Source: an uncultured Gemmatimonadales bacterium
Lineage (GTDB): Bacteria > Gemmatimonadota > Gemmatimonadetes > Gemmatimonadales > GWC2-71-9
Direction of reading: 5' to 3'
DNA: 64,000 bases
Assembly: GCA_963771275.1 (NCBI GenBank)
Contig: CAVYSW010000003.1
Coordinates: 1,376,001-1,440,000 of the forward strand
Below, piece after piece: positions 2,509 through 27,879 of this stretch. Position 1 is the stretch's first letter; every line of letters starts with the position of its first letter. The translations under genes and the position numbers were made by a program. Under the pieces are notes generated by a model that saw nothing but the letters and a program-made list of their open reading frames with translations, was not told the DNA's origin and searched no databases.

Positions 2509-2542
2509 CAGCGCCGACCTCCGCGACCGAGCCGTCCGTGGT

Positions 2543-2860: not shown

Positions 2861-2924
2861 CGGACTCCTCCTCAGCCTGGCCATCCGCGCGCCTCGGGGC
2901 GCCGGAGAGGCCCACGTGGGCGGT

Positions 2925-3317
2925 TTACAGGATGTCAATGTCCAGTCGTGGCGGGTGCGTCAGCGTGTGGTGAATGACGCACTGCTCGGCCACGCGACGT
3001 ACGGCTGCCCTGCGATCCTCGGGGACTCCCGGCGGCAATTCCACATCGGCCACGATCGCGCCGATACGCTTGGGATCGTCCGCCAGCTCCACGGTCAGAT
3101 TGACGGCGACGTCGCCGCCCGTGTACCCGTGCGTCTCGCAGTAGCCCTGCACCATCATCGCGATACAGGCACCGAGGGAGCCGGCCAGGAGCTCCACCGG
3201 GGCGAACCCGGCGTCCTGGCCGCCATCCCCCGGGGACATGTCACTCGTCACCGAATGCCGGCGCACGCGGATCGCGAACGCCTGGCGCTCCTTCCGGGTG
3301 ACGGTGATCAGGTCCAT
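2925..3317 (-). CDS. OsmC/Ohr family protein
   Basis: 130 aa, GGQDAGFAPVELLAGSLGAC and second Cys in QCVIHHTL, typical OsmC family signature. Confidence 0.85.
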   Translation of the reverse strand: MDLITVTRKERQAFAIRVRRHSVTSDMSPGDGGQDAGFAPVELLAGSLGACIAMMVQGYCETHGYTGGDVAVNLTVELADDPKRIGAIVADVELPPGVPEDRRAAVRRVAEQCVIHHTLTHPPRLDIDIL

Positions 3318-3321
3318 GGCA

Positions 3322-4551: not shown

Positions 4552-4639
4552 CGTCGTTCCCTCGTTGAGGCGTGCGGTTGTGGTGTCCGACGTATGCTTC
4601 ACGACTCGCCCCGGTGGGCGGGTCAACGGTCCGAGTTCT

Positions 4640-5917
4640 TCAGCGTCCTCCGACCTCAACCAGCTCCCGAGTCTCGACCGGCTCGCCGGTCGGCGGTTCC
4701 CGGAGGAGCGCCCCGCCGTCACCCGGCGCGAGCCGGCCGACCGGCCGGGTCCGCCCCGTGTGCTCGGCGTACACCATCGCCGTGGTGCGGTAGAGCAGGT
4801 GCGCGAACTTCGAGTACGGCAAGTACACCAGCAGCTGGAACACCAGAACGAGGTGCACCAGGTAGACGGCATACGCGACCTGGGCGAGCCCGCTTGCAGG
4901 CGCGGGACCGACGGCGAACCGGAACGTCTCCGTCGCGAACCCGGTGACCGCGACGCCCAGGAGCAGCCACACGAAGAGCCAGTCGAACGACGTGCTGACC
5001 GCCGAGCCGGCCTTGCTCCCCATCCGGTCGACCATGGCCTTCACGCAGCCGAAGATCAGCACCACCCCACCCACGTTCGCGAGGATCTTCATCGGATGGA
5101 GCAGGCCGAACGGATACATGGAGGCAATCCCGAACACGCGCGGATTGACGTAGAGATCCACCACCGCCCACACGGTCACGACGTACAGGGCCAGGAAGCC
5201 GTAAAACGCCGAGAGGTGGGCCAGCCGACGCGGCGCCTGGGCCGTGCACTTGGCGAACCGGTCGTGGGTCACGATCGACTGGAGCGTGTGCAGGATGGCC
5301 GGCAGAATGCCGATTGCGGACACGTAGGCGCCGCGCGCCACGTCGGCCGCCTTCATCGCCCGCCAGAACCGCGTGACTCCCGCGACGGCCACCACCAGGG
5401 CCAGCCCCGTGAAGAACCCATAGAAGCCGATCAGCAGCCAGTGGGGGAAGAACTCGGCGTAGAACCCGTGCTCCGCGCCGAACGGGAGCATCCGCTCGAG
5501 CGGCGCGCGCGCGGCCAGCGCCGCGGCCAGCAGCACGACCGGGATCAGCAGCATCACGGGCAGGTACTTGAACCCGTTGGCCCACGTGGCGAGGAAGCGG
5601 GGAACGGCGTACTGGTGCACGACGCGCCGCCGCACCGCTGCCAGCACGTCCCCCGGCCGCGCCCCGCGGGGGCAACGCGTCGAGCAGTCATTGCACTGGT
5701 GGCACAGCCAGACGTCGGGGTCCGCCATGAGGCGGTCCTTCAGGCCCCACTGCGCCCACAGCATCTCTTTCCGGGGGAAGCGGCTCCGGCCGGTGGACAG
5801 CTGGCACACCACCGAGCAGGTGGCGCACTGAAAGCACTGCTTGAGATCCCCGCCGCCCGACGCGACGATCTCCGCCACGAATCTCCTGTCCGGCCTCAGC
5901 ACTTGGACGTCGGCCAT
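4640..5917 (-). CDS. qmoC: QmoC membrane subunit (2x[4Fe-4S] plus cytochrome b domain)
   Basis: [11 protein letters not shown] and [12 protein letters not shown] followed by TM helices with His ligands, YLPYSKFAH; follows qmoB. Confidence 0.93.
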
Positions 5918-12625: not shown

Positions 12626-12694
12626 TTTCGCATCTCCTCGAGGATTCCCTCGGCCGAAGCCAGTAGATCCGGTATGTCGTCGATGTCCGGCCGC

Positions 12695-13162
12695 CTACAG
12701 CGTCACGGCCTTGGCGATCTTGACCTTGCCCCGCTCGGTGTTCAGGCCGGCCGGCTCGCACATCAGCGTCGGGCTCTTCAGGTCGGCATCCCCGGTGGGA
12801 TAGTGGCTGAACGGCTGCGCTTTGCCTTCAGCGACGCCCCGGCGGTGCGGGAACTTGAACCGCTTCGGCTTGATGTCTTTGCTGCGGAACTGGAGGGTCC
12901 ACATGATGTCTTCGGAGCTGCGCATTGCCGTGACGCTCGCGCCCATCGGCACGAAATCGGCGTAGCCGCGTACCTCGATCGCCTGCGTCGGGCAGATCTT
13001 CACGCAGCTGTAGCACTCCCAGCACATCCAGGGATCCTGGTTGTACGCCTTCATGGTGCCCTTGTCGAGCACCATGAGGTCGTTCGGACAAATGTACTGG
13101 CAAGCGGTCTTGTCGAGCGCTTTGCAGCCATCACACTTGTCCGGGTTCACGAAGGTCGGCAT
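12695..13162 (-). CDS. aprB: APS reductase beta subunit
   Basis: 155 aa; CDGCKALDKTACQYICPNDLM and CWECYSCVKICP ferredoxin motifs. Confidence 0.97.
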   Translation of the reverse strand: MPTFVNPDKCDGCKALDKTACQYICPNDLMVLDKGTMKAYNQDPWMCWECYSCVKICPTQAIEVRGYADFVPMGASVTAMRSSEDIMWTLQFRSKDIKPKRFKFPHRRGVAEGKAQPFSHYPTGDADLKSPTLMCEPAGLNTERGKVKIAKAVTL

Positions 13163-13344
13163 GACTTGTTTCCTTTCTGTCCAGATCAGGCGTTCCCGGG
13201 AACTAGGCCTTCTCTCCGATACCTACCAGCCCGCAGCGGCGACCTCTCGCCAGAGGCGCCGCACGGTAGCCGCATCCATCGCCGCATCTCCACTCCCCTG
13301 CTGCGCGACTGTCATCGTACCCGTCCATAGCCGACTGTCACACT

Positions 13345-13362
13345 CCGAGATATTTATCACGA
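13345..13362. promoter_or_regulatory. Candidate Rex operator downstream of the aprB promoter
   Basis: Minus strand TCGTGA-TAAATA-TCTCGG resembles TTGTGAA-N4-TTCACAA; AT-rich core in high-GC DNA. Confidence 0.55.
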
Positions 13363-13376
13363 TTCACCTCACGGGA

Positions 13377-13404
13377 ATCTTGCCGCCCGTGCCCGGCGCG
13401 TCAA
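13377..13404 (-). promoter_or_regulatory. Candidate sigma70 promoter for the aprBA-qmo-sat-dsr cluster
   Basis: Minus strand TTGACG-N16-CAAGAT, about 215 bp upstream of aprB. Confidence 0.55.
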
Positions 13405-13411
13405 GGCCTAA

Positions 13412-13429
13412 GTGCGATTCCTGTCACGA
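13412..13429. promoter_or_regulatory. Candidate Rex operator just upstream of the aprB -35
   Basis: Minus strand TCGTGA-CAGGAA-TCGCAC pseudo-palindrome. Confidence 0.55.
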
Positions 13430-14152
13430 TTCGGAGATTATTGCAATCCGTCTTCTCCCGTTTCGCGCGCGCGGAGCTCCGGGAGGAGGGTGGCGCCGGA
13501 CGGGCACGGGAGCCGCAAGAGATGCCGCACCGTGCCGGCGGAGGTGGTGGGTGATCTCCGACAGACCGAGGGAAATGTGCTCGTTGCGCACCAGCACGCC
13601 GGACGGCACCACCGGGTGCGCGGGGGCGAAATTCCAGATGACCCGGACGCCGGCATCGGCGAGACGGTCGATGACCCGCTGGGCGGCGTCGGCGGGCGTC
13701 GTGACGACGGCGAGCGGGATGTGGTGGCTCTTGATGAACGCGCTGAGCGCGCGCATCGGTCGCACGGGGCACCCGTTGATACGCCGGCCGATCTTGCGCG
13801 GGTCGGTGTCGAACGCCGCGAGAAAGTGCAGGCCGTAGCGGGTGAACCGGCGATACGCCAGGATAGCCGAGCCGAGGTGGCCGGCGCCCACGAGCACCGC
13901 GTCATGTTGGCGGTCGAAGCCAAGCTCTTGCTGCACGGCCAGGCAGACCTCGTCCACCTCGAAGCCCACCCGTCCCTTGCCGAGCAGACCGATCGCCCCG
14001 AAATCCTTGCGGACCTGCGTCGGGTCGATGTCGAGCGCCTCGGCGATGCGGCCGCTGGTGACCGTGCGGCCCTGGTCCCGCACGGGGGACTCGGACAGGA
14101 GCAGGTAGTACCGCATCAGGCGTTCGAGCGCCAATTGGCTGAGATGCGCCAT
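13424..14152 (-). CDS. rex: Redox-sensing transcriptional repressor Rex
   Basis: Likely start MAHLSQLALERL; winged helix with QVRKDF and GKGRVGF; Rossmann GAGHLG; IWNFAP. Confidence 0.93.
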   Translation of the reverse strand: MAHLSQLALERLMRYYLLLSESPVRDQGRTVTSGRIAEALDIDPTQVRKDFGAIGLLGKGRVGFEVDEVCLAVQQELGFDRQHDAVLVGAGHLGSAILAYRRFTRYGLHFLAAFDTDPRKIGRRINGCPVRPMRALSAFIKSHHIPLAVVTTPADAAQRVIDRLADAGVRVIWNFAPAHPVVPSGVLVRNEHISLGLSEITHHLRRHGAASLAAPVPVRRHPPPGAPRARNGRRRIAIISES

Positions 14153-14193
14153 CGGTCCCCCTTGGCCGCCGCGAGCACCCCCCTGCGGAGTAT

Positions 14194-14252
14194 TCGCGAT
14201 TTTTGTCACACTTTCACTACCGGCATTCTAGCAGCGGGCCGCGGCGCGTCAA
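14194..14252 (-). promoter_or_regulatory. rex promoter (extended -10) with downstream Rex-like operator
   Basis: Minus strand TTGACG(14252-14247)-N16-TAGAAT(14230-14225) with TGn; operator-like TCGCGA-TTTTTG-TCACAC at 14194-14211. Confidence 0.65.
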
Positions 14253-14322
14253 GCCCTTGCGGGGTTCGGTGAGGAGCGGAGAGGTTACGGTCACCGTTCC
14301 CCTCCCCTCGGGAGACTGCACG

Positions 14323-15348
14323 ATGCCTGCCTCACCCAACACCCCGCGTCCGCTGCGCCGCCCACGGCGGCTGCGCCGCAACGCCATCATCCGCGGCTTG
14401 ATCCGCGAAACGCGCCTGACGCCGGACCGGCTGGTGCTGCCGCTGTTCATCGTCGATGGCGAGCACGTGGCCGATCCCATCGCCAGCATGCCGGGGCAGG
14501 CCCGGTTGTCGATCGATCGTTCGATCGCCAAGTGCGAGGAAGCACTCGCGCTGGGCGTTGGTGCTTTCGCCCTGTTTCCCGCCGTGCCGCCGTCCCGCAA
14601 GACGCGCGACGCCAGGGAGGCACTCAATCCGGACAATTTGCTCTGCCGCGCCGTACGCGCGCTGAAGGCCGCAGTCCCCAGCGCATTCCTTATTACGGAC
14701 ATCGCGCTCGATCCCTATTCCAGCCTGGGCCACGACGGACTCGTGAGCGACGACGGGGTCGTGCTGAACGACGACACCGTGGACGTGCTGGCGGGAATGG
14801 CGGTGGTGCATGCCCAGGCGGGAGCGGACATGGTCGCCCCGTCCGATATGATGGACGGTCGAGTGGGCGCCATCCGCGCCGCGCTCGATGCCGCCGGGGC
14901 CACCGACGTGGCGATCCTGAGCTACACGGCCAAGTACGCGTCCGGCTTTTACGGGCCGTTCCGCGAGGCGCTCGACTCCGCTCCAGTCGACGCGCCCAAC
15001 GTGCCGAAGGACAAGAAGACCTACCAGATGGATCCGGCCAACGCGCGCGAGGCGCTGACCGAGGCCCGGCTCGACGAGCACGAGGGCGCGGACGTCCTGA
15101 TGGTGAAGCCCGCCCTGCCGTACCTCGACGTCATCAGCCGGCTGCGCGCCGCCACCCATCTGCCGATCGCCGCGTACCACGTGAGCGGCGAGTACGCCAT
15201 GCTCAAGGCCGCCGCGGCCAACGGCTGGCTCGACGAGCGCACGTGCATGACGGAAGTGCTCGTGGCGATCGCCCGGGCCGGGGCCGACGTGATCCTCACC
15301 TACGCGGCGCTGGATTACGCCCGGTGGTGGCGAGAAACGTCGCGGTAG
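14323..15348 (+). CDS. hemB: Porphobilinogen synthase (ALA dehydratase), Asp-rich non-Zn type
   Basis: RPRRLR, APSDMMDGRV, KKTYQMDPAN, MVKP, AYHVSGEYAM; metal site DIALDPYSSLGHDG lacks the Cys triad. Confidence 0.96.
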   Translation: MPASPNTPRPLRRPRRLRRNAIIRGLIRETRLTPDRLVLPLFIVDGEHVADPIASMPGQARLSIDRSIAKCEEALALGVGAFALFPAVPPSRKTRDAREALNPDNLLCRAVRALKAAVPSAFLITDIALDPYSSLGHDGLVSDDGVVLNDDTVDVLAGMAVVHAQAGADMVAPSDMMDGRVGAIRAALDAAGATDVAILSYTAKYASGFYGPFREALDSAPVDAPNVPKDKKTYQMDPANAREALTEARLDEHEGADVLMVKPALPYLDVISRLRAATHLPIAAYHVSGEYAMLKAAAANGWLDERTCMTEVLVAIARAGADVILTYAALDYARWWRETSR

Positions 15349-15522
15349 GAGGTTCGAGGCGTTTCGATTCTGCGACATGAACGGCCCCGTCCGTGACCGC
15401 CGTGTAGCGGGACTGCCCGCCGGCATTCGCACCAAGTCCTACCATTTCAATCGGATAGCGCAGGGAGGGGCATGGAGTCCGGCTCGCGGATGGGTTACCA
15501 TTCAGTTGTGCAACAGTGAGAC

Positions 15523-16923
15523 ATGGCGAGCCAGCACAGCTCGCCGGGTCAAGGGGGCGGGATGGAGCCGGAGAGCGAAGCCAAGTTCTTCCAGACGGTG
15601 CTGCGCTGCGTGGCCGACGGGGTCTTCACGATCGACCGCGAGTGGCGCATCACGTCGTTCAACAAGGCCGCGGAGCGCATCACTGGCGTGCCAGCCAGGC
15701 AGGCGATCGGGAAGAAGTGCGCCGACGTCTTTCATGCGGACATCTGCGAGGACAACTGCGCGATCCGCGAGACGCTGACCACGAAGCGTGAGGTCATCGA
15801 TCGGTCGGCCAGGATCCTCAACTCGGCGGGCCGGGCCGTCCCGATCAGCGTCAGCACCGGCGTGCTGCGGCGGGATGGCGGGGAGATCCTCGGCGCCGTC
15901 GAGACCTTCCGCGACCTGTCGGCCATGGAGCAGCTGCGCCGCGAGATCGACTGCAAGTACACGATCGAGGACATCATCGGCAAGAGCGAGGCGTTCCAGA
16001 AGATCTTCGCCATCCTGCCGGACATCGCCGAGAGCGAGAGCACGGTGCTGCTCGAAGGACCGAGCGGCTCGGGTAAGGAGCTCCTCGCGCGGGCGATTCA
16101 CAACCTGAGCCCGCGGCGCAAGCAACCCTACGTCGTCGTGAACTGCGGCACGCTGCCGGCCAACCTGGTCGAGTCCGAGCTGTTCGGCTACAGGCAGGGC
16201 GCGTTCACCGATGCCAAGACGAACAAGCCGGGCCGCATCGCCCTGGCCGAGGGCGGCACCGTCTTCTTCGACGAGATCGGGGAGCTGCCCCCCGAAACGC
16301 AGGTGAAGCTGCTCCGGCTGCTGCAGGAACGCGAGTTCGAGCCGCTTGGCGGCGTGAAGCCGCAGAAGGCCGACGTCCGCGTCGTCGCGGCGACGAACAG
16401 GAGGCTGGCCGAGCTCGTGAGCCGAGGGCTGTTCCGGGACGATCTCTACTTCCGTGTGGCCGTGGTACGTCTCACCATTCCGCCGCTGGCGGCGCGGCGC
16501 GAGGACATTCCGTATCTGGTCGATCACTTCATCGAGCGGTTCAACGCCAAGCGCGGGAAGAAGATCCAGGGCGTCACCTCCGCGGTGATGGAGATCCTCA
16601 TGCGGCACGAGTTTCCCGGGAACGTGCGGGAGCTCGAGAACCTGATCGAGTACGGGTTCGCCCTGTGCCACAATGGGCTGATCGACACGTGTCATCTGCC
16701 CGAGGAGCTGAGGCCCACGGGGCGCGCCGTCCCCTGCGGACACGCCCCCGCGGCGAGCATCTCCCCCTTGCAGCGCGCGGAGGCGGAGGCCGTCCGAGCC
16801 GCCCTGAGTCACAATGCGGGCCACCTGGGCCGCTCGGCCGTGGAGCTCGGCGTGAGCCGCGCCACCCTGTGGCGCAAGATGACCCGGTACGGGATCGTCG
16901 CGGAGGCGTTCCGCGACGGCTGA
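15523..16923 (+). CDS. Sigma54-dependent activator (PAS-AAA+-HTH), OrpR-like
   Basis: PAS with C-x8-C-x3-C (KCADVFHADICEDNC), Walker A GPSGSGKE, ESELFGYRQGAFTDA, C-terminal LGVSRATLWRK HTH; start may be 15562. Confidence 0.92.
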   Translation: MASQHSSPGQGGGMEPESEAKFFQTVLRCVADGVFTIDREWRITSFNKAAERITGVPARQAIGKKCADVFHADICEDNCAIRETLTTKREVIDRSARILNSAGRAVPISVSTGVLRRDGGEILGAVETFRDLSAMEQLRREIDCKYTIEDIIGKSEAFQKIFAILPDIAESESTVLLEGPSGSGKELLARAIHNLSPRRKQPYVVVNCGTLPANLVESELFGYRQGAFTDAKTNKPGRIALAEGGTVFFDEIGELPPETQVKLLRLLQEREFEPLGGVKPQKADVRVVAATNRRLAELVSRGLFRDDLYFRVAVVRLTIPPLAARREDIPYLVDHFIERFNAKRGKKIQGVTSAVMEILMRHEFPGNVRELENLIEYGFALCHNGLIDTCHLPEELRPTGRAVPCGHAPAASISPLQRAEAEAVRAALSHNAGHLGRSAVELGVSRATLWRKMTRYGIVAEAFRDG

Positions 16924-16928
16924 CCGGA

Positions 16929-16978
16929 TGGCTCGACATTGAAACGTCGGAGCCTCCTGCGGTTTCACATCTGCAACA
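16929..16978. promoter_or_regulatory. Pair of candidate enhancer (UAS) sites for the sigma54 activator
   Basis: TGGCTCG-ACAT-TGAAACG (16929-16946) and GGTTTCA-CATC-TGCAACA (16961-16978), 32 bp apart; a similar site TTGTGCA-ACAG-TGAGACA lies at 15506-15523. Confidence 0.5.
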
Positions 16979-17066: not shown

Positions 17067-17081
17067 TGGCGCGCTACCTGC
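17067..17081 (+). promoter_or_regulatory. Sigma54 (-24/-12) promoter
   Basis: TGGCGCG-CTAC-CTGC matches TGGCACG-N4-TTGC spacing, 27 nt upstream of the next start; IHF-like TAACACGTTG at ~17029-17038. Confidence 0.65.
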
Positions 17082-17107: not shown

Positions 17108-17494
17108 GTGAGAGTCGCCATTCCGCGTCTCGGAGAGTCGGTCGCGCCGTGCTTCGGGCACTGCTCCATCATGGCAGTGTTCACGGTGGAGAGCGGTCGG
17201 GTGATCGACCAGATCGACTTTCGCCTCCAGAGCCGCGAGCCGTTCGACCGCGTGCGGCTGCTCCGCGACCAACAGGTCGACACGATCATCTGCGGCGGGG
17301 TGCAGGATGTGTACGAGGCCTCGCTGCGCGCCAACGGCATCCGGGTCATCTCGTGGGTTTCCGGCAGCGTCAACGATCTGCTGGCGTTGTTCGTCCGGGG
17401 CCAGCTGGTGCCCGGGACCGTGACCGGCCGTCGCTCGGCCTACGAGGGGCCGGACCATCCGAAAGGAAGCCACATCGGTGGGCACAAGGGATAA
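17108..17494 (+). CDS. NifB/NifX (dinitrogenase FeMo-co / Orange-protein-like) family protein
   Basis: MRVAIP...VAPCFGHC...VDTIICGG...LRANGIRV; GGGGAGG RBS before GTG. Confidence 0.85.
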   Translation: MRVAIPRLGESVAPCFGHCSIMAVFTVESGRVIDQIDFRLQSREPFDRVRLLRDQQVDTIICGGVQDVYEASLRANGIRVISWVSGSVNDLLALFVRGQLVPGTVTGRRSAYEGPDHPKGSHIGGHKG

Positions 17495-18884
17495 GTACAG
17501 CTACTACGTCGAGCCGCGGACGCTCGAGGTCACGGAGCGGGCGCGGAAGTTTCTCGAGGCGTTCGCCGCGGTGCTGGACGCGGGCAACTACGGCCTCGCG
17601 CTCGACACCTATGCGCGGTTGAGCGCGAAGTGCGCGCGGTGTGCGGTCTCCTGCCAGCTCTACGAGACGACGCATGCGGCGCGTGACATTCCCTGCCGCC
17701 GCTCCGATCTGCTGCTGCGCGTGTATCGTCGCTACTTCACGCCGGCCGGGATCGCCCGGGCGAGGCTGTTCGGCGGGTTCACCCTCACGGACCGGTATCT
17801 CGATGTGATGGCCGAGGAGTACTACCGCTGCACGGCGTGCCGGCGGTGCGCGGCCACCTGCCCGGTCGGCATCGACCACGGCCTGGTCACCCACCTCGCG
17901 CGCTGGCTGCTGGCCGAGATCGACGTGATCCCCAAAGCGCTGGTGGTCGCCGTGCGGGAGCAGCTGCAGGGCGTGGGGAACACGTCGGCGATTCCGGTCC
18001 CCGCCCTCAAGGACACGTGCGAGTTCCTGGAGGAGGAGTTCCGCGACATCTACCACGTCGACGTCAAGTTCCCGATGGATGTCGAGGGGGCGGAGTACGT
18101 GTTCTTCCCGGCGGTGTCGGACTACCTGCTCGAGGCGGACACGCTGATGGGTAACGCGGCCGTGCTGCACGTGACGGGCAGCTCGTGGACCATCGGCACG
18201 GGCAACTACGACGGCATCAACTACGGCCTGTTCTACAGCGACCGGATGATGGAGCGCATTGTGCGCAACGTGGTCGCGGAGGTCCACCGGCTCAAGGGCC
18301 GCAAAGTCCTGGTGGGCGAGTGCGGCCACGCGACGCGCAGCGCCTGGTACATCCCGGCGTTCGGCGGCGCGGACCCGCCCCCGGTCGTGAACTGTCTCCA
18401 GTACACGTGCCAGATGCTGGAGGCGGGCCGGATTCCGCTGAAGCCGGAGAAGATCGCAGAGCGGGTGACGTATCACGACCCGTGCAACATCGCCCGCAGC
18501 GGGCGGATCACCGAGGAGCCCAGAGAGATCCTCAAGGCCATCTGCAGCGACTTCGTCGACATGACGCCGAACCGGACCCGGAACTACTGCTGTGGTGGTG
18601 GGGGCGGCACGGTGTCGATCGACGAGATCCGCGCGTTCCGCACGGGCCTCATGGGCAAGCGCAAGGCCGACCAGATCCGCGCCACGGGGGCGAAGGTTGT
18701 CGTCTCCCCCTGCGCCAACTGCAAGAAGCAGCTCCGCGAAGTCTGCCAGGACAACGGGCTGGAAGACGTCGAAGTTCTCGGCCTGCACGATCTGCTGCTG
18801 CGCGTGATCGACTTCGGCGTGGCCGGGCCGCCCGCCGAGCCGGCGGGCGAGGGCGCGCGCAGCTGCGCGGGGCCGGCAACCTGA
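17478..18884 (+). CDS. HmcF/DsrK-like HdrD-family Fe-S protein
   Basis: 468 aa; CTACRRCAATCP, VGECGHA, YHDPCNIAR...YCCGGGGG...SPCANC CCG domain. Confidence 0.88.
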   Translation: MGTRDKYSYYVEPRTLEVTERARKFLEAFAAVLDAGNYGLALDTYARLSAKCARCAVSCQLYETTHAARDIPCRRSDLLLRVYRRYFTPAGIARARLFGGFTLTDRYLDVMAEEYYRCTACRRCAATCPVGIDHGLVTHLARWLLAEIDVIPKALVVAVREQLQGVGNTSAIPVPALKDTCEFLEEEFRDIYHVDVKFPMDVEGAEYVFFPAVSDYLLEADTLMGNAAVLHVTGSSWTIGTGNYDGINYGLFYSDRMMERIVRNVVAEVHRLKGRKVLVGECGHATRSAWYIPAFGGADPPPVVNCLQYTCQMLEAGRIPLKPEKIAERVTYHDPCNIARSGRITEEPREILKAICSDFVDMTPNRTRNYCCGGGGGTVSIDEIRAFRTGLMGKRKADQIRATGAKVVVSPCANCKKQLREVCQDNGLEDVEVLGLHDLLLRVIDFGVAGPPAEPAGEGARSCAGPAT

Positions 18885-18902
18885 CAAGAAGGAGCGTGGG
18901 AC

Positions 18903-19604
18903 GTGGAAGGCTGGATCGCATTCGCTCGTGGGCCGATGTTCCGGGCTGCCCTGGTGTTCATGGTGCTGGGGCTGGTGCGCCACGCCGTGATGACCATCTG
19001 GGAGATGCGACGAATCGTGCGCCGGGCGGGTGACAAGACGATTCCGTATCGCAAGGTGCTGATCGCGACGGTGAAGTGGCTGCTTCCGGTGGGGAAGATC
19101 CACCAGCGCCTGCCGTACAGCCTGACGACGCTGGTCTTCCACGTCTCGGTCGTCATCGTGCCGCTCTTCCTCGCCGGGCACATCGCCCTCTGGGCGGCGG
19201 GGACCGGCGTGTCGTGGCCGGCCATCTCGAACGGCCTCGCGGACATTCTGACGATCGCCGCGGTCGTGACCGCCCTGCTGCTCGTGGTGGAGCGGGCGGC
19301 CGCGGCCGACTCCCGGGTGTTGAGCCGGTTTCAGGACTATGTCATCCCGCTCCTGATCGCCGTGCCGTTCGCCTCCGGGTTTCTCGTCCGGCATCCGGCG
19401 TGGAATCCGTTGCCGCTCGATGCGGCGCTTCTCGTGCACGTCGTGAGCGCGAACTTCCTGCTCATCCTGATTCCCCTGACCAAGCTCAGTCACATGATCC
19501 TGATGCCGGCCACCCCGTTGGTGTCCGAGCTGGCATGGCACTTCCCGCCGGACGCCGGACAGCGGGTCGGCGTCGCGCTCGGCAAAGCGGAGCAACCGAT
19601 ATGA
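18903..19604 (+). CDS. HmcE/DsrM-like NarI-family membrane cytochrome b
   Basis: 233 aa, ~5 TM helices, four His (FHV, GHI, VHV, TKLSHM). Confidence 0.82.
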   Translation: MEGWIAFARGPMFRAALVFMVLGLVRHAVMTIWEMRRIVRRAGDKTIPYRKVLIATVKWLLPVGKIHQRLPYSLTTLVFHVSVVIVPLFLAGHIALWAAGTGVSWPAISNGLADILTIAAVVTALLLVVERAAAADSRVLSRFQDYVIPLLIAVPFASGFLVRHPAWNPLPLDAALLVHVVSANFLLILIPLTKLSHMILMPATPLVSELAWHFPPDAGQRVGVALGKAEQPI

Positions 19605-20383
19605 CCGAACGTGTGGCCATCCTGACCGACACGACGCGCTGCACCGGATGCGACAAGTGCGTGGTCGCGTGCAAGGAGAAGAACAAGCTGGGTGAGGACC
19701 ACGCGTGGCGCTGGCAGGGAGCCGTGGATGACCTGTCGTCGTCGCGCCTGTGCACGATCATCCGGCGCCCCGGGGGGCACTTCATCCGCCAGCAGTGCCG
19801 GCACTGCCTCGAGCCGGCGTGCGTCAGCGCCTGTCTGGTGGGCGCGCTGCAGCAGACGCCCGAGGGCGCGGTCGTGTACGACAGCGACCGCTGCATGGGC
19901 TGCCGCTACTGCCTGGTGGCGTGTCCCTACGGGATCCCGCGCTACGAGTGGCAGGATGCGGTGCCGCACGTGCGCAAGTGCACGCTCTGTGCGGACCGGA
20001 TCGCGGAGGGCAAGATCCCGGCGTGTGTCGAGGCGTGTCCGGAGAAGGCGACGATCTTCGGCACCCGGGAGGAGCTGCTCGCCGAGGCGCACCATCGGCT
20101 CGCCGCCCATCCCGCGCGCTACGTGCAGCGGGTGTTCGGCGAGCACGAGGTCGGCGGCACGTCCGTGCTGTACATCTCGGATCTGCCGCTCGACTTCCTG
20201 GGCTGGCAGCCCGACCTGGGTCCGCGGCCGCTGCCGGAGCGCTCGTGGGCATCGCTGCACAAGGTGCCGCCGCTCATGCTCGCCGTCGGAGGCCTGATGA
20301 GCGGCGTGTACTGGGTGATCGGGCGGCGCATGAAGCTGGCGTCGGAACGGGACGCCGCGCCGCGCGAGGCGGACGATGAATAG
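19601..20383 (+). CDS. HmcB/HybA-like 4x[4Fe-4S] protein with C-terminal TM anchor
   Basis: ATGA overlap at 19601; DTTRCTGCDKCVVAC, CRHCLEPACVSAC, CMGCRYCLVACP, CTLC...CVEACP; GEHEVGGTSVLY. Confidence 0.9.
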   Translation: MTERVAILTDTTRCTGCDKCVVACKEKNKLGEDHAWRWQGAVDDLSSSRLCTIIRRPGGHFIRQQCRHCLEPACVSACLVGALQQTPEGAVVYDSDRCMGCRYCLVACPYGIPRYEWQDAVPHVRKCTLCADRIAEGKIPACVEACPEKATIFGTREELLAEAHHRLAAHPARYVQRVFGEHEVGGTSVLYISDLPLDFLGWQPDLGPRPLPERSWASLHKVPPLMLAVGGLMSGVYWVIGRRMKLASERDAAPREADDE

Positions 20384-22401
20384 ACGCCTGGTCGTCCTCA
20401 AGACGGCGCTCTGGGGTCTGGTGGGGGTGCTGGCCGCCGTGACGGTCGTTCGCTTCACGCGCGGTCTGGGAGCGGTCACCGACCTGTCCGACGCCGCGCC
20501 CTGGGGTCTGTGGATCGGCTTCGACGTGATGGCCGGCGTGGCCCTGGCCGCCGGCGGGTTCGTGCTGGCGGGCACGGTGTACATCTTCGGACTGGAGCGG
20601 TACCGGTCCTTCGTCCGGCCGGCGATCCTCACGGCGTTCCTGGGCTATGTGGCCGTGGCGGTCGGGACTGCTGTACGATCTCGGCCTGCCGTGGCACATC
20701 TGGCACCCGCTGATCTACTGGCAGTACCACTCCGTACTGTTCGAAGTCGCGGCCTGCGTGATGTGTTACCTGACGGTGCTCACGCTGGAATTCGCGCCGG
20801 TCGTGCTGGAGCACCCGTGGTTCGCGCGGCCGGCGTTCCGGAAGGTGTTGGGCGGCTTGAAGCGGATCACGATCGGCCTGGTGATCGCGGGGATCGTTCT
20901 CTCGACCCTGCACCAGTCGTCGCTCGGCTCACTGTTCCTCATCACCCCCTATCGACTCCACCCGCTGTGGTACAGCCCGATCATCTACGTGCTGTTCTTC
21001 GTGTCGGCGGTGGGGTTGGGGCTCATGACGGTCGTGCTGGAATCGCTGCTGGCGGCGGTGTTCCTGGGGCACAAGGTGCACGTGAAGCTGCTCGCCGGGC
21101 TCGGCAAGGCGGCGGCCGTGGTGCTCGGTCTCTACACCGTGTTGCGGTTGGGTGACCTGGCGGTGCGTGGGGTGCTGCCGTCGGTGCTGGACGGCTCGTG
21201 GCAGAGCGCGCTGTTCGTCTTCGAGCTCGGGATCAGCGCCATGATCCCCGCCGGCCTGCTGCTGCTGCCGCGGGTCCGCGCGAGCGTGGCGGGGCTGGCC
21301 GTGTGCGCCGGCATGACCGTCGCCGGCATGGTGCTGAACCGGGTCGACGTCTGCATGGTGGCGTTCGCGCGGCCGCAAAACATGGGCTACTTCCCGCGCT
21401 GGATGGAGTTCGCCGTCAGCGTGGGTATCGTCGCGGCCGCCGTGCTGGCGTTCGTCTTCTTCGTCGAGCGCTTCCGGGTCTACCTGGACGAAGACGCTCC
21501 CCAGCCCCACGCGGAGCCGTCGTTCCATCCCGCGGCGCTGCGGAACCTGCTCCCGTCCAGGCTGGCCGCGCCGCGCCGGTTCTCGCTGGCGGCCATCTCG
21601 GGCGCCGCCGCGGCGGTGCTGTTCCTGCCGGGCCAGGCGTTCACGGGCGCGGTGCCCACCCGCACCCCGGCGCTGGCCCCACGCACGGTCGAGGCCACCG
21701 CGGTGACGGGGGCCCGTGGTGAGCGCCGCAAGCTGCTGCTGGCGGGACACCCGGGAGTGCCGGGGGACGGCCGCCAGGTGCGGGTGCTGATGATCGACGG
21801 CAACCGGAACGGCGACGCCGTGCTGTTCGACCACGACAACCACATCGAGCGGCTGCATGGCGATGCGTCGTGCAAGGCGTGCCATCATCTCAATCTGCCG
21901 CTCGACGACGACGCGCCCTGCTACGCCTGTCACCGCGACATGTACGAGCCGACATCGCCGTTCGACCACGCGCTCCACGTGCAGGAGTTGCGCGGCAATG
22001 CGGGCTGCGGCAAGTGCCACAAGGACCCCGCCGCCGCAAAGACTCTCGAGGCGGCCGCCCCGTGCGCCGAGTGTCACAAGGACCTGGTGGTTGCGGGGTC
22101 CAGAATCGCGGCGCCGCACGACGTGTGGCGGCCGGCGGCCGGCTACGTGGCGGCGATGCATGGGCTGTGCGTCAAGTGTCATGAGGAGAACGTCCGCGAG
22201 CGGCCAGCGGACACGCCGCAGCACCTGGAGCGCTGCGACACGTGTCATGACGCGGACCGCGGTGTGGATCTGGAGCGCATGAGGCCGGACAACGCCAGGC
22301 TGCGCGACGGGCGGGGTGCCCGTACCGGCGGGAGCCGGGGCGGTGACGAGGTTCGAGGCGCGGCGACGGCCGCCGGGCCACGGCCCGACGGGAAAGGGTG
22401 A
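20376..22401 (+). CDS. HmcC/HybB (NrfD family) membrane protein fused to a hexaheme cytochrome c domain; one +1 frameshift near 20665
   Basis: N-part PWGLWIGFDV...GYVAVAVG joins GLLYDLGLPW...SVLFEVAAC...LSTLHQSSLGSL in another frame (gtcGGGactg); six CxxCH motifs at the C-terminus. Confidence 0.85.
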
Positions 22402-23543
22402 ACATGCCAACCGCGATTGACACGTGGCTGCGCGCGCACCTGTTCGACGAGGTGCCGGTCAGCATCTGCGTGATCGACCGGGACTTTCGGATCGTCAGGG
22501 CGAACCGCCGGTTTTGCAGCGAGTACGGACCGTGCGACGGCCGGCGGTGCTACGAGGCCTACAAAGGCCGGCACAGCCGCTGCGACCAGTGCGCCGCGGT
22601 GAAGACGTTCGACGACGGGAAGATCCGCAGCCGTGAGGAGGAAGGCAGCGTCCGTGACGGGAGCCCGGCCCACTACATGGTGCACATGGTACCCATCGCG
22701 CGGCCCGATGGGAGCATCCCGTACGTCATCGAGATGTCCACCGACATCACGTCGGTCAAGCGACTCGAGCGGGAGAAGCGGGAGGCCGAGCGGCTGGCGG
22801 CCGTCGGCGAGACCGTCGCGGGCCTCGCGCACGGGATCAAGAACGTGCTGATGGGCTTGGAAGGCGGCATGTACGCGGTCAACACGGGCATCCAGCGAGC
22901 GGATGACGAGCGGATCGCCCAGGGCTGGCTCATGCTGGAGGAGAACATCGCGCGGATCTCGGAGTTCACGCAGGAGTTTCTCGATTTCGCCAAAGGCCGG
23001 CCGGCGGACGTGGCGCTGGTGGATCCCAACAGTCCCGCGCGGAAGGTCGCGGAGCTGTTCCGGGAGAAAGCGGCGAAAATGGGGATCACGCTGCACACCG
23101 AGCTGGGGGACGGGATCGCGCCCGCGCCGCTGGACGCGGACGGGATTCACACGTGCCTGGCGAACCTGGTGTCGAACGCGCTCGACGCGTGCCGGGCGAG
23201 CGACAAGGACCGCGCCTACACGGTGACGCTGACGTCCCGGGATGCGGACAGCGTGCTGGTCTACGAGGTGTCCGACAACGGCCGCGGCATGGACTATGAG
23301 GTGAGCCGCAAGGTATTCGCGCGGTTCTTCACGACGAAGGGATCACACCGGGGTGTCGGGCTGGGACTGCTCACCACCCGGAAGATCGTCGATCAGCACG
23401 GCGGCCGTGTATCCTTCACCTCCAAGGAGGGGGAGGGCTCCCGGTTCCGCATCGAGCTTCCCCGGGACAGGCTGCCGCGGCCCACCGAGCAGGCGGCGTC
23501 GCTTCAGCCGGCAGCGAACGACGACGCTCACGCGAGGCGCTGA
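22398..23543 (+). CDS. PAS-domain sensor histidine kinase
   Basis: Cys-rich PAS (CYEAYKGRHSRCDQC), H-box AHGIKN, N-box NLVSNALDA, DNGRG, FFTTK, GVGLGL. Confidence 0.93.
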   Translation: MNMPTAIDTWLRAHLFDEVPVSICVIDRDFRIVRANRRFCSEYGPCDGRRCYEAYKGRHSRCDQCAAVKTFDDGKIRSREEEGSVRDGSPAHYMVHMVPIARPDGSIPYVIEMSTDITSVKRLEREKREAERLAAVGETVAGLAHGIKNVLMGLEGGMYAVNTGIQRADDERIAQGWLMLEENIARISEFTQEFLDFAKGRPADVALVDPNSPARKVAELFREKAAKMGITLHTELGDGIAPAPLDADGIHTCLANLVSNALDACRASDKDRAYTVTLTSRDADSVLVYEVSDNGRGMDYEVSRKVFARFFTTKGSHRGVGLGLLTTRKIVDQHGGRVSFTSKEGEGSRFRIELPRDRLPRPTEQAASLQPAANDDAHARR

Positions 23544-23547
23544 GATC

Positions 23548-24093
23548 ATGGTGCAAGCCCAGGACAAGACCGTACTCGTGGTCGACGACGAGCCGAACGT
23601 CCGGAGCTACCTGGCGCAGATTCTCAAGGACGCGGGGTTCACCGTCGTGACGGCGGCCGATGGTGACGAGGCGCTGGAGCTGATCCGCAGCCGGCCGCCG
23701 GACTTCATCTCGCTGGACCTGGTGATGCCGCGGAAGAGCGGGCGCCGGCTGCTGTACGAGCTGCGGAAGGACCGGCACCTGGCCCAGATCCCCGTCCTCA
23801 TCGTCACCGCCCACGCGCAGGATGACCTGGGCCGGTCCGACATGGACGATCTCATGCAGGGCAAGGTGCTGTCCGGGACGGGCGTGTACCTGGAGAAGCC
23901 GGTGAAGCCGCTGGACTACGTGCGCATCGTCCAATCGGCGCTGGGCATCGCGGAGGCCGACCACACGGTCGACCGGATCAGTCTCAAGGAAGAGCTGGAG
24001 CGGCAGATCCAGGGGGCGGAGCCGCACGCGCTGCGCCGTGCCCTCGAGATCCTCAAGAAGAAACCGCGGCCCGACGCCACCGATCAGCAGTGA
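23548..24093 (+). CDS. Response regulator receiver protein
   Basis: Start MVQAQDKTVLVVDDE; LDLVMP phospho-Asp; EKP; short helical tail, no DNA-binding domain. Confidence 0.9.
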   Translation: MVQAQDKTVLVVDDEPNVRSYLAQILKDAGFTVVTAADGDEALELIRSRPPDFISLDLVMPRKSGRRLLYELRKDRHLAQIPVLIVTAHAQDDLGRSDMDDLMQGKVLSGTGVYLEKPVKPLDYVRIVQSALGIAEADHTVDRISLKEELERQIQGAEPHALRRALEILKKKPRPDATDQQ

Positions 24094-24119
24094 GCGGGAC
24101 CGCTCAAGGAGGCCTGTCC

Positions 24120-24551
24120 ATGTCGACCGCCGGCGGAAGCAACGGCAAGAAGAAGATCCTCATCGTGGAGGACGAGCCCGACGTCGTGGCGTATCTCGAG
24201 ATGCTGCTGCGTGACGCCGGGTACGCCACGGTGTCGGCCCGGGACGGGCTCGAGGGCTTGAAGCTGGCGCGGCGGGAGAAGCCCGATCTCGTGACGCTGG
24301 ACATCGTGATGCCCGAGACCACCGGCGCGCGCTTCTACAAGGAGATCCGGAGCGATCCGGAGCTCGCCAAGATCCCGGTGGTTATCGTCACCGCGGTCCG
24401 AGGATACGCCGGCGATCCGTACGGCTACGAGAAGTTCATCAGCAAGCGGCACTCGGTGCCGCCGCCGGATGGCTTCTTCCCCAAGCCGATCGACAAGGAC
24501 GCGTTTCTCGAGGCGGTGCGAAAGCTGGTCTCGCGCGCGGCTGTGAGTTAG
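24120..24551 (+). CDS. Single-domain response regulator
   Basis: ILIVEDE, PDLVTLDIVMP, PKP; AAGGAGG RBS before ATG 24120. Confidence 0.9.
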   Translation: MSTAGGSNGKKKILIVEDEPDVVAYLEMLLRDAGYATVSARDGLEGLKLARREKPDLVTLDIVMPETTGARFYKEIRSDPELAKIPVVIVTAVRGYAGDPYGYEKFISKRHSVPPPDGFFPKPIDKDAFLEAVRKLVSRAAVS

Positions 24552-24620
24552 CCACCCCACAGTGCTTCCGCCGAAACCGCGGTTTTGGCTGGGGGTACGT
24601 ACTTGGGGAGGAGTGGTGAC

Positions 24621-25118
24621 ATGGTTCATCGCTTGGTGGGCTGCGCGTGGCTGGTGGCCGTTGGGCTTGGCGTGCTGGCTGCCGCGCCCGTCCAACGGCA
24701 GGCGCAGCTGGTCGGGCAGGAGTCGCCCCAACCGTGCCGGCTTCCGCGCTCCGTCATACCGGCCGTCCCCGAGAAGATGCCCATACCGGATTCCATCTGG
24801 GCCGAGATCAACGCGCCGGAGAACATCGTACACGACGATTCGGTCGTGGCTGGGCCCTACCCGCGCGACTTGATCGTCCTCTGGTTTCGTGACGAGGCCA
24901 CGCAGGCCGAGCGGCAAGGTGCCGTGGATCTCATCGGTGCCCAACTTATTGGGAGTGCTCCCATGCGTCCGGGTGGGCCTTACTTCTTGCGCATCTGCCA
25001 CGACGGCACCACGGGACCGCTTCACGCGGCCATCAGGCGGCTGCGGGCGCTTCCGGGAGTCGCGGCCGTCACCACGCTCCCCCCGCCGCTGAGCCCGGCG
25101 GCCCACCCAGAGCGCTGA
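24621..25118 (+). CDS. Secreted hypothetical protein (paralog 1), subtilisin-prodomain-like
   Basis: GGAGGAG RBS, signal-peptide-like N-terminus, strong similarity to the next ORF. Confidence 0.7.
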   Translation: MVHRLVGCAWLVAVGLGVLAAAPVQRQAQLVGQESPQPCRLPRSVIPAVPEKMPIPDSIWAEINAPENIVHDDSVVAGPYPRDLIVLWFRDEATQAERQGAVDLIGAQLIGSAPMRPGGPYFLRICHDGTTGPLHAAIRRLRALPGVAAVTTLPPPLSPAAHPER

Positions 25119-25141
25119 CCGGGGTTGGGGCAGGCGGTACG

Positions 25142-25642
25142 ATGCCTGTAGGAGAATCCCAGGTAGCACCTGCCTCCACGATGGGTCCGTGGTCTGCAAT
25201 CGTTGCGCTTGCCTTGTTGGTGAACGCGCCTTTCCTGCACGCAGCGCGGTTGGTGGGTCAAGAGTCGCCCAAACCCTGCCGGCTTCCGCACTCTGTCGTT
25301 TCCGCACCGCCTGACAGCTTTTCGGCCGAAGTCGCCAAAGAAGTCTACGCTCCGGAGAACATCGTCTGGGTTGATTCGATCATGACCGGCCCGTATCCGC
25401 GTGACATGATCTGGCTCTGGTTCTATGACGACACGCCATACGCCGACCGGCAGGCGGCCATTGACTCGATCGGCGGGACGGTAGTAGGCGGCTACCCGTT
25501 CCGGCCGGGTGGTGCCTACTACGTGCGCATTTGCCACGACGGAACCGCTGGGCCGCTGCACCGGGCGATTCGACGGCTGCAGGCCCTTCCCGGAGTCCGG
25601 CTGGCCACGCCAGACCTTGAGATGGCCCTGCGTCCGACGTAG
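25142..25642 (+). CDS. Secreted hypothetical protein (paralog 2)
   Basis: Shares LVGQESPxPCRLP, APENIV, GPYPRD, RICHDGTxGPLHxAIRRLxALPGV with paralog 1; start may be 25181. Confidence 0.7.
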   Translation: MPVGESQVAPASTMGPWSAIVALALLVNAPFLHAARLVGQESPKPCRLPHSVVSAPPDSFSAEVAKEVYAPENIVWVDSIMTGPYPRDMIWLWFYDDTPYADRQAAIDSIGGTVVGGYPFRPGGAYYVRICHDGTAGPLHRAIRRLQALPGVRLATPDLEMALRPT

Positions 25643-25685: not shown

Positions 25686-26576
25686 CTAGCCCGCTTCCCC
25701 AAGCTCCGCCAGCAGTCGCCGCGCGAGTCGCACTCCGACATCGTCGGGGTCCGGGCCCTCCTCGGTGCCTTGGACGTCGCGGGTCTGGTCGTCACTGAAC
25801 AGGCGCCCCCGCAGGGCCACGAGATCGGCACGCAGCGTCGCCAGCGCCCCGACTGGCGCGTGACAGCCTGCGTTGATCTCGCGGAGCAGGGCCCGCTCGG
25901 CGGTCACGGTCCGGCGGGTGGTCGGGTCGTCGATCGCCGCGACGAGGCCGGCGACCTCACTCCCTGCCCGCGCCTGCACCGCCAGCGCTCCCTGCGCCGG
26001 CGCCGGCAGGAACCGCTCGAGTGGGAGATCGATCCGATGGGGGTGATCGATGCCCAGGCGGTTGAGCCCCGCGGCCGCGAGGATCACGCCGTCCAGGCCC
26101 TCCCGTTCCAGCTTGGCAATCCGCGTGGGCACGTTGCCCCGGATGGGCACGATCTCCACCTTGCACAGCCGCTTGATCTGCGCGGCGCGGCGCGGGCTGT
26201 TGGTGCCGATGCGGGCGCCGGCCGGGAGGTCTTCCAGCCTCCTCGCGCCGCGGGTGAGCAGCACGTCGTGCGGCGCCTCCCGGAGCGGGATCGCGGCGAT
26301 TGCGAGACCGTCGGTAGGCGCGGTCGGCAGGTCCTTGTAGCTGTGCACCGCCACGTCGATCCGCCGCTCGAGCAAGGCCTGCTCCAGCGCGGTCACGAAG
26401 GCGCCCTCGGGCCAGGCGGGACCGAACGGCTGGTCCGGCACTCGATCGCCGTGAGTCTTGATGATCACCTGCTCGACGGCGAGCGACGGGTGCGCCTCAC
26501 GCAGCCGATCGCACACCCAGCCGGTCTGCCGGAGCGCCAGGTCGCTGCCGCGCGTGCCGACCCGGACGGCCGTCAC
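25686..26576 (-). CDS. hemC: Hydroxymethylbilane synthase
   Basis: GTRGSDLALRQ, DVAVHSYKDLP, IRGNVPTR, PAPAQGAL, GCHAPVG. Confidence 0.95.
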   Translation of the reverse strand: MTAVRVGTRGSDLALRQTGWVCDRLREAHPSLAVEQVIIKTHGDRVPDQPFGPAWPEGAFVTALEQALLERRIDVAVHSYKDLPTAPTDGLAIAAIPLREAPHDVLLTRGARRLEDLPAGARIGTNSPRRAAQIKRLCKVEIVPIRGNVPTRIAKLEREGLDGVILAAAGLNRLGIDHPHRIDLPLERFLPAPAQGALAVQARAGSEVAGLVAAIDDPTTRRTVTAERALLREINAGCHAPVGALATLRADLVALRGRLFSDDQTRDVQGTEEGPDPDDVGVRLARRLLAELGEAG

Positions 26577-27879
26577 GCGCTCGCCTGGCGGAACGCCTCA
26601 CCGGCCGCGTCGATCACGTGCGCGATCGCCTGGTCGTCATGGGCGGCGGAGACGAACATGGCCTCGTAGGAGGAGGGTGGGAGCCACACGCCGCGGTCGA
26701 GCATCGCCCGGAAGAACCGCGCGAACAGGGCGTGATCGCACGCCTGGGCGTCGGCGAAGTTCACCACGGGGCGGTCGAGCAGGGCCATGCCCAGCATGCC
26801 GCCCGTCGCACCGGCCTGGAGCGCAACCCCCGCGGCCGCCGCCGCGCGCCGCAGTCCGTCCGTGAGCTGCACGGCGCGGCTCTCCAGCGTCCGGTAGAAA
26901 CCTTCGGCGCGGCACAGGGTCAGGGTGGCGATCCCGGCCGCCATGCCCAGCGGATTGCCGCTCAGGGTCCCTGCCTGATACACCGGTCCCGAGGGGCTCA
27001 CCCGCTCCATCAAGGCTCTGGGGCCCCCAAAGGCCGCGACCGGCATGCCGCCGCCGATCACCTTGCCGAGGCAGGTGAGGTCGGGGCGCACGCCGCAGAC
27101 GTTCTGATAGCCGCCCCAGGCCACCCGGAACCCGGTCATCACCTCGTCGAACACGAGCAGGCTCCCGTGCCGATCGCACAGCGCGCGGAGCCCCTCGAGG
27201 AACCCGTCCAGCGGCTCGACGTAGCCCATGTTGCCTGCAATCGGCTCCACCAGGATGGCGGCGATCTCGGTCCCGTGCCGGTCCATGATGCGCCGCCATC
27301 GCCGGCAGGTCGTTGAACGGCGCCAGCATGCGTCTCGGCGGCGTAGGCCGCCGGCACGCCGGCCGAGTCGGGGACGCCGAACGTAGCGGCGCCCGAGCCC
27401 GCGGCCACCAACAGGCCGTCGACGTGCCCGTGGTAACACCCGATGAACTTCAAGACCTTGGTTCGGCCGGTCGCAGCGCGGACCAGCCGGACGGCGCTCA
27501 TCGTGGCCTCCGTGCCGCTGTTCACGAACCGCACCACCTCGATCGACGGGAGCGCCGCGACGATCAGCTCCGCCAGCTCGGCCTCGGCCGCGCAGCACGC
27601 GCCGAAGCTCAAGCCGCGCGCGGCGGCGTCGGCCACCGCGCGGACCACCGCGGGGTGGGCGTGGCCCACGACCGCCGTGCCCCAGCTCCCGACCAGATCC
27701 ACGTAGCGCGCGCCGTCCACATCACAGACGTAGGCGCCTTCCATGCGATCGACGAAGACCGGGCGGCCCCCCACCGCGCGGAACGCGCGGACCGGGCTGT
27801 TGACACCGCCCACCAGCACGCGGCACGCGCGCTCGAAAAGCGCGGCGGAGCGGGGTCGGGCGCCGGGGCGTTCGGTCAT
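26573..27879 (-). CDS. hemL: Glutamate-1-semialdehyde 2,1-aminomutase, with two +1 frameshifts near 27296-27330
   Basis: [26 protein letters not shown] in one frame; LAPFNDL in a second; [27 protein letters not shown] in a third; joined length 435 codons. Confidence 0.9.

Follow-up and report, generated by a model that had tools for sequence, protein, structure and literature searches.

We analysed a 64,000-nucleotide stretch of an uncultured Gemmatimonadales bacterium (contig CAVYSW010000003.1, positions 1,376,001 to 1,440,000), here called the window, which carries a four-gene operon, F, E, B and C. In subunit C an NrfD/HmcC-like membrane domain is fused to a domain with six heme-binding motifs. 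The four genes lie head to tail on the plus strand, with C subdivided as follows (window coordinates):

17478–18884, plus strand: F, cytoplasmic Fe–S protein of the DsrK/HmcF/TmcB type (NCBIfam, alignment)
18903–19604, plus strand: E, NarI-type di-heme cytochrome b with H80, H93, H179 and H197 (NCBIfam, alignment)
19601–20383, plus strand: B, four-cluster ferredoxin with 16 Cys, without an N-terminal twin-arginine translocation (Tat) signal; its C-terminal membrane tail precedes an arginine pair (RR)
20376–22401, plus strand: C as a whole, NrfD/HmcC-like domain fused to a hexaheme domain
20376–20666, plus strand: N-terminal piece of C, residues 1–97 (HmcC model positions 13–90; tblastn frames), ending at a one-base frameshift near 20664–20666
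20665–21480, plus strand: remainder of the NrfD/HmcC-like quinone-binding domain of C, 10 helices together with the N-terminal piece
21574–21630, plus strand: 11th helix of C with a basic inner flank, which would bring the C-terminus to the periplasm and resembles a captured signal anchor
21772–22260, plus strand: hexaheme class III (c3-like) domain of C, with six CxxCH and six distal His

The junctions are overlaps or a gap of 18 bases and leave no room for an HmcA or HmcD gene, so both the order F–E–B–C and the lack of separate HmcA and HmcD, as described in an earlier note on this DNA, hold. Across the six frames of the window (127,996 residues) CxxCH occurs only ten times, six of them within the hexaheme stretch of C. 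The subunit names are approximate, since all four chains score under the Hmc cut-offs of NCBIfam. F scored 260 bits on DsrK (cut-off 400), 202 on HmcF (cut-off 750) and 199 on TmcB, below the cut-off in each case, whereas a partial true DsrK encoded in the window passes with 450 bits. E scored 120 bits on TmcC and 118 on HmcE (cut-off 275), and the best match of B was HmcB (254 bits, below cut-off, beginning at model position 35). For C we scored the intact homolog P0002, whose best model was HmcC (316 bits, cut-off 550).

The CxxCH motifs of C (21871–22248) share a reading frame with the NrfD domain, as do the motifs FDHDNH (21826), FDHALH (21961) and AMHG (22153), all three confirmed from the earlier note, and a hydrophobic stretch at about 21580–21630 supplies the extra helix proposed between the two domains. 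The fusion therefore stands, but C is not one open frame: in tblastn searches the intact homologs P0002, P0003 and P0005 aligned to frame 3 over residues 1–97 and to frame 1 from residue 97, which places one extra base at the G run near 20664–20666. This break lies in the third helix of the NrfD domain, away from the junction with the cytochrome, which is intact; a stop between the domains in raw reads had been named as what would refute the fusion. We consider it a likely assembly error, because hemL (26573–27790, minus strand) is also split over at least two frames, which suggests indel errors in this assembly, and because three loci from other genomes (L001, L032 and L062) show comparable breaks. 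The frameshift near 20665 could instead mark a true pseudogene, such that this organism has a broken C and does not make the complex intact. Both pieces of C are 78–97% identical to intact homologs, hemL is split in the same window and the breaks in the three loci fall in different genes of the operon, all of which make a pseudogene highly improbable.

We next derived the topology of C from 35 sequences, with helix boundaries placed from an alignment and a structure model. Lys and Arg averaged 2.4–5.7 on each of six inside loops versus 0.2–1.3 on each of five outside loops. By this alternation C has 11 helices, starts on the inside and ends with the hexaheme domain on the outside, in line with the periplasmic hemes that had been expected; helix 11 corresponds to residues 394–415 of P0002. 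The top Foldseek match of the P0002 model was ActC (E-value 6.6e-8), and the model of full-length C had low confidence in the cytochrome part. Residues of the quinone site and proton path listed for QrcD (PMC6303296) and NhcC (PMC8076601) could be mapped onto C by spacing rather than by alignment. In the 35 sequences, D50 was kept in 32, Y69 in 34, Y91 in 35 and D101 in 33, and E123, Y131, E138, E145 and H179 in all 35. Judged by sequence, C is a protein with an inside N-terminus, a 10-helix domain, an 11th helix and an outside hexaheme domain, and the predicted cofactor ligands of all four chains are conserved.

In the hexaheme domain, six His outside the CxxCH motifs were conserved in 48–49 of 49 sequences, one per heme, and the domain scored 46 bits on Pfam Cytochrom_CIII (cut-off 22.9). 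Its model had a predicted local distance difference test score of 87. Compared with type I tetraheme c3, the best Z score was 6.5 (below 8; root-mean-square deviation 3.2), with 94 of 163 residues aligned end to end, and all 13 listed structure-comparison rows were c3, c7, Hmc or nine-heme-type cytochromes (Z below 8). Foldseek with the same model returned no match at an E-value of 0.001 or lower, and sequence searches against solved structures turned up nothing closely related to F, E or the hexaheme domain. The end-to-end alignment would fit a tetraheme c3 core with a two-heme insert, which the domain may consist of.

Forms without the NrfD core were also seen. In locus L005 a second operon (12608–16034, minus strand), Tmc-like and without B or C, faces the full operon and encodes F, E and then a free hexaheme cytochrome with a signal peptide, in addition to a 191-residue protein without a Pfam match; the free hexahemes P0071 and P0072 are similar to that of L005. 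Because this free hexaheme with a signal peptide follows F and E, helix 11 of C may be a captured signal, if a free hexaheme became fused rather than the reverse. In nine database proteins (P0114, P0162, P0167, P0171, P0182, P0184, P0193, P0198 and P0206) the same multiheme domain follows a short membrane anchor; by eye, these anchors resemble an NrfD protein that has lost its core and is reduced to its first and last helices.

Among 8000 candidates scored with the C-terminal region, 55 matched; 54 had six CxxCH, and 49, the window's own included, carried both NrfD and six CxxCH, on which ground we rejected an assembly artefact as the source of the fusion. When 1.84 billion representatives were searched with a profile, 222 matched at an E-value of 1e-30 or lower; the best 150 comprised 61 with NrfD sequence, 77 without it and 12 very large multiheme proteins. 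Many of the 77 look like fragments; short-anchor and free forms are also among them. All counts of loci (L numbers) come from a scan across GTDB genomes, of which the best 80 of at least 599 stretches were analysed. We classed 58 of the 80 as six-heme fusions, including two with frameshift breaks and one truncated by a contig end; 46 fall in 13 named phyla and 12 have no phylum assigned. F, E and B precede C in 41 of the 47 loci with at least 3 kb upstream, E and B alone in 4, and none in 2. In L047, a divergent second copy of the fused C (12259–13680) faces the operon.

We built an unrooted tree on the NrfD portion, with 82 rows and 277 columns and with canonical HmcC, NhcC and HybB sequences absent. 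One branch (100/99) separated 60 fused rows from 22 sister rows, and the window's C grouped with seven Gemmatimonadota rows and one Planctomycetota row, which by itself makes a host in Gemmatimonadota probable. The sister module (L043, L053, L055, L056 and L066–L080; for example, L043:7348–14727) is mostly from Acidobacteriota. It encodes a signal-less B, an NrfD protein, a heme-containing sensor kinase, a sigma-54 regulator and an M54 peptidase, often with a membrane-anchored GcvH-like gene upstream; in L053 and L070 a triheme cytochrome is fused to the NrfD protein. Within the fused group, a Planctomycetota variant (L011, L013, L014 and L016; for example, L013:8396–14600) has E, B and six-heme C followed by a large paired-CxxCH cytochrome, and no F. 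The cytochrome has 23 hemes in L013, L014 and L016, and its gene in L011 is cut by the contig end. The ESM Atlas holds clusters with an NrfD–cytochrome Pfam architecture under automatic names, as well as NrfD–c7 and NrfD–octaheme fusions, which indicates that NrfD became joined to a cytochrome more than once. Downstream of the operon in L046 (14858–17425), an eight-heme cytochrome is fused to a C-terminal membrane domain.

F has one complete five-Cys CCG motif (C336, C371, C372, C412 and C415) and the Cys of a GECGH motif (C282), the pattern given for DsrK, HmcF and TmcB (bioRxiv 2023.08.03.551783). These Cys and His were found in 39 of 39 aligned sequences. The first ferredoxin motif of F lacks its first Cys, which the invariant C73 may replace. 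Identity to DsrK, DsrK-2-like and HmcF-like proteins was 29–32%. In six loci a second DsrK-like protein of about 540 residues is encoded near the operon (L003 at 2146–4664, L006, L008, L009, L049 and L051), in five of them behind a gene for 280–300 residues (NarI-like in L003), an arrangement that resembles the dsrMK-2 pair of PMC6338057. In E, H93 and H179 were conserved in 47 of 47 sequences and H80 and H197 in 44 of 47. The four loci without F have lost H80 and H197, which we take to be the ligands of the cytoplasm-side heme from the topology of NarI and the basic flanks of E itself, and have kept H93 and H179. These loci form one clade (100/99), so that the loss counts as a single evolutionary event, and since the pair is lost where F is absent, the inner heme of E goes with F.

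B bears the marks of a periplasmic subunit and no signal that would take it there, a lack that the earlier note had passed over. It has 16 Cys, and its C-terminal helix is followed by RR in 113 of 120 homologs, as in the periplasmic HybA and HmcB, which suggests that the tail ends inside with the cluster domain outside. Its RYC tyrosine is invariant and probably matches the quinone-site tyrosine of QrcC, a correspondence drawn without an alignment. B starts about 13 residues ahead of its first Cys. Of the 49 fused loci in which an upstream gene was called, 47 have at most 22 codons between the upstream stop and that Cys; the exceptions are L049 (34 codons, with a start placed immediately ahead of the domain) and L062 (where the upstream gene has a frameshift). 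Judged by the Tat consensus, none of the 120 best database homologs has a Tat leader, and a simple pattern scan of the loci showed no conserved Tat-bearing neighbour; DsrO of L030 does show a Tat-like leader. We looked for hidden signals elsewhere in the operon and found no support for them. Only 16 of 35 sequences of C have RR within the first 12 residues. Ahead of helix 11 it is present in 27 of 35 close homologs, against only 9 of the 37 GTDB proteins that could be scored; the RRFL-like N-terminal stretch of F is unconserved, with no hydrophobic region after it. A predicted complex of B (residues 1–205) with the hexaheme domain scored zero in both runs, with the controls not folded, and counts neither for nor against binding. 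B of the sister module is signal-less too, so the trait extends beyond the fused group. The missing signal leaves the assembly of the periplasmic arm to be explained.

We compared the operon with known complexes. Hmc comprises a cytochrome c, a tail-anchored ferredoxin, a HybB-like NrfD protein, a NarI-like cytochrome b and a cytoplasmic CCG protein (bioRxiv 2023.11.02.564894). All five module types are present here, with HmcB and HmcC as the best NCBIfam matches of B and C, and the likeness extends to the tail on B, the 10 NrfD-type helices of C (plus the 11th), the two hemes of E and the single CCG and GECGH motifs of F. The operon differs in having six hemes fused to C where Hmc has a free 16-heme HmcA, in lacking HmcD, in the scores of all four chains and in occurring mostly outside Desulfobacterota. 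B also lacks the N-terminal Tat signal by which HmcB is presumably exported, as the Hmc preprint implies. The gene order has a partial precedent and is not unique: a published Thermodesulfovibrio Hmc cluster runs, by locus tag, F, HmcA, an unnamed gene, B and C (PMC5165239).

DsrMKJOP has the same five modules (cytochrome b, HdrD-like protein, periplasmic cytochrome c, ferredoxin and NrfD protein) and the same single CCG and GECGH motifs. However, E and C match no DsrM or DsrP model, whereas the window's own DsrM and partial DsrK pass theirs; DsrJ is a separate triheme cytochrome, DsrO of L030 has its Tat-like leader, and the new operon can sit beside a complete dsrMKJOP. In Tmc, subunits like F and E likewise occur with a cytochrome of the c3 type; E matches the TmcC and HmcE models equally well, and regulators like DVU0259 are adjacent here, but Tmc as described in PMC4215793 has no NrfD subunit. 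Nhc and Qrc share the cytochrome–ferredoxin–NrfD arm, with quinone-site and proton-path residues that match by spacing. Nhc has a nine-heme cytochrome and lacks E and F, as does the D. piger operon likened to it (PMC4215793), and Qrc has QrcB, a subunit not encoded here. The one published parallel to B, a C-tailed ferredoxin without a signal peptide, is paired with a HybB-like protein (bioRxiv 2023.11.02.564894); this pair adjoins a Tat-exported FeFe hydrogenase, whose Tat-bearing gene lies directly upstream as the proposed carrier, whereas no such gene is linked to our operon. In function the complex would resemble Hmc or DsrMKJOP, but its features place it outside Hmc, Nhc, Tmc and DsrMKJOP alike. 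We found no prior description of an NrfD–hexaheme fusion in full-text literature, a search largely outside subscription papers and supplements, and no mention of it in the accessible parts of PMC13047784, PMC10504309, PMC4215793, PMC8477390, PMC6338057, PMC6491731 and PMC6018805. The suggestion that the architecture is undescribed thus stands provisionally, and the fusion is apparently a widespread, undescribed variant among anaerobic bacteria.

Sulfur genes precede the operon in the window, with dsrMK, dsrC, sat, qmoABC and aprAB within 18 kb upstream. In the flanking DNA available for each locus, dsrAB, dsrC/M, apr, qmo or sat flank 8 of the 58 fused loci (7 of the 35 with at least 15 kb) versus none of the 22 sister loci. 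The operon of L030 directly follows a full dsrMKJOP, and links to dsr, apr or qmo genes recur in lineages far apart on the tree.

We hold, with moderate confidence, that the products of the four genes assemble into a single membrane redox complex that packs the five modules of Hmc and DsrMKJOP into four chains and passes electrons from periplasmic cytochromes via the hexaheme domain, B, menaquinone and E to F, which would reduce DsrC-trisulfide or a similar substrate. Topology, conserved cofactor ligands and the conserved operon support the four-subunit conduit from periplasm through quinone to cytoplasm that the earlier note had proposed; the assembly into one complex, the location of B and the direction, substrate and regulation are what we infer. 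Periplasmic electrons would enter the bis-His hexaheme domain, pass through the four clusters of B and reduce menaquinone at a periplasm-side site in C, with protons drawn from the cytoplasm through a Qrc-type channel, which would separate charge. The quinol, or the cytochrome directly, would then reduce the two b hemes of E, which would carry electrons inward to the noncubane cluster and GECGH cysteine of F. F might in turn reduce a disulfide or trisulfide in the cytoplasm; where the host has dsr genes, this would most likely be DsrC. The second route to DsrC that had been put forward fits the DsrK-type motifs of F but is a proposal, and only 8 of 58 fused loci have core sulfur genes in the available flank. 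The simplest way for B to reach the periplasm would be together with a Tat-exported partner whose gene lies elsewhere.

Sulfate and sulfite reducers beyond the classical groups are known largely through their genomes. As a means of feeding periplasmic electrons to their DsrC, this operon, now mis-annotated as a hydrogenase or formate dehydrogenase subunit, is a compact and conserved candidate. Four chains with a fused cytochrome offer a simpler system in which to test the quinone loop proposed for Hmc and DsrMKJOP, and the signal-less ferredoxin poses a testable question of Tat hitchhiking. The natural variants (F lost with the inner heme of E, free hexaheme and anchor-only forms) show how such complexes are rebuilt in modules.

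Several observations weigh against the inward-running complex that we favour. In 50 of the 58 fused loci, including 28 of the 35 with at least 15 kb, there is no core sulfur gene in the available flank, and in L038 (9998–11893) and L040 (3335–5227) a fused C occurs without F, E or B upstream. The window's own copy of C is frameshifted. No gene of the operon supplies the Tat signal that B lacks, and the partner invoked above is hypothetical. Under the spacing-based mapping, F63 of QrcD is W in C, M139 is mostly V and N100 is R (as in NhcC). Finally, even for the related Hmc the literature has not settled on a direction (PMC4215793, PMC6303296). The same wiring could carry electrons outward, from a pool of thiols or ferredoxin in the cytoplasm to cytochromes in the periplasm, in syntrophy, towards external acceptors or in redox balancing. 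The Hmc of D. alaskensis has been proposed to run this way (PMC4215793), the nested clade of four Planctomycetota loci swaps F for the large paired-CxxCH cytochrome and most loci do not lie beside dsr genes; but C keeps the Qrc/HybB-type proton-path residues that are tied to quinone reduction in PMC6303296, and in several phyla the operon lies within clusters of reductive sulfur genes. We judge outward flow to be unlikely.

The acceptor of F might be a thiol or disulfide carrier other than DsrC, with the link to dsr clusters secondary, as F is only about 30% identical to true DsrK, stays under the DsrK cut-off that the partial true DsrK exceeds (260 versus 450 bits) and has sulfur genes near it in few loci. 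This is improbable given the DsrK-type single CCG and GECGH motifs and the recurrence of dsr, apr or qmo links in distant lineages. Still less probable is that B is never exported and stays in the cytoplasm, perhaps bound to F, with C mainly anchoring the hexaheme domain and electrons taking a Tmc-like path from cytochrome to E to F. The missing signal, the three-gene operon of F, E and free hexaheme in L005 and the roughly nine proteins that join a short, NrfD-remnant-like anchor to the same hexaheme fit such a path; the RR after the tail of B and the invariant RYC tyrosine, as the putative QrcC match, do not, and the conserved periplasm-side quinone residues of C would be pointless without B above them. 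A bolder version of the inward-running complex, which we regard as doubtful, is that it and the sister B–C module put a four-cluster ferredoxin on the periplasmic face without a Tat signal or a Tat-bearing soluble partner, and that the complex is a distinct, ancient DsrC conduit of non-classical sulfate reducers across many phyla. If true, it would imply that folded Fe–S proteins can cross the membrane by an unrecognised route, such as one through a membrane subunit.

The genes and sites around the operon include regulators of several kinds:

15523–16923, plus strand: PAS–AAA–HTH sigma-54 activator with C-x8-C-x3-C like OrpR (Pfam, motif)
17067–17081, plus strand: candidate sigma-54 (–24/–12) promoter (pattern match)
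17108–17494, plus strand: small NifB/NifX-type (Nitro_FeMo-Co, Orp-like) protein, an accessory present in some loci only (Pfam/NCBIfam)
22398–23543, plus strand: PAS histidine kinase, commonly linked, overlapping the stop of C (Pfam)
23545–24093, plus strand: single-domain response regulator 1 (best match the DVU0259 family, below cut-off)
24090–24551, plus strand: single-domain response regulator 2 (best match the DVU0259 family, below cut-off)

The OrpR-type C-x8-C-x3-C spacing, which in OrpR corresponds to C52, C61 and C65 (PMC8359166), was found in 22 of 24 sigma-54 activators beside fused operons. A sigma-54 promoter pattern lies upstream of F in 9 of 39 loci versus 7 of 141 background windows, a weak enrichment. 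The upstream activator is likely to be a redox-sensing activator of the operon and would probably turn it on when the redox potential is low. A short inverted repeat with 6-base arms (16940–16968), noted by eye between this activator and the candidate promoter, is a possible activator site. A gene for a Rex-like regulator (13424–14209, minus strand) lies directly upstream of aprBA, and the rex–aprBA block also flanks the operon in L003 and L008. The operon is flanked by hemB, hemC and hemL, and at 24585–25642 two short tandem paralogous open reading frames encode apparently secreted products with similar C-terminal halves.

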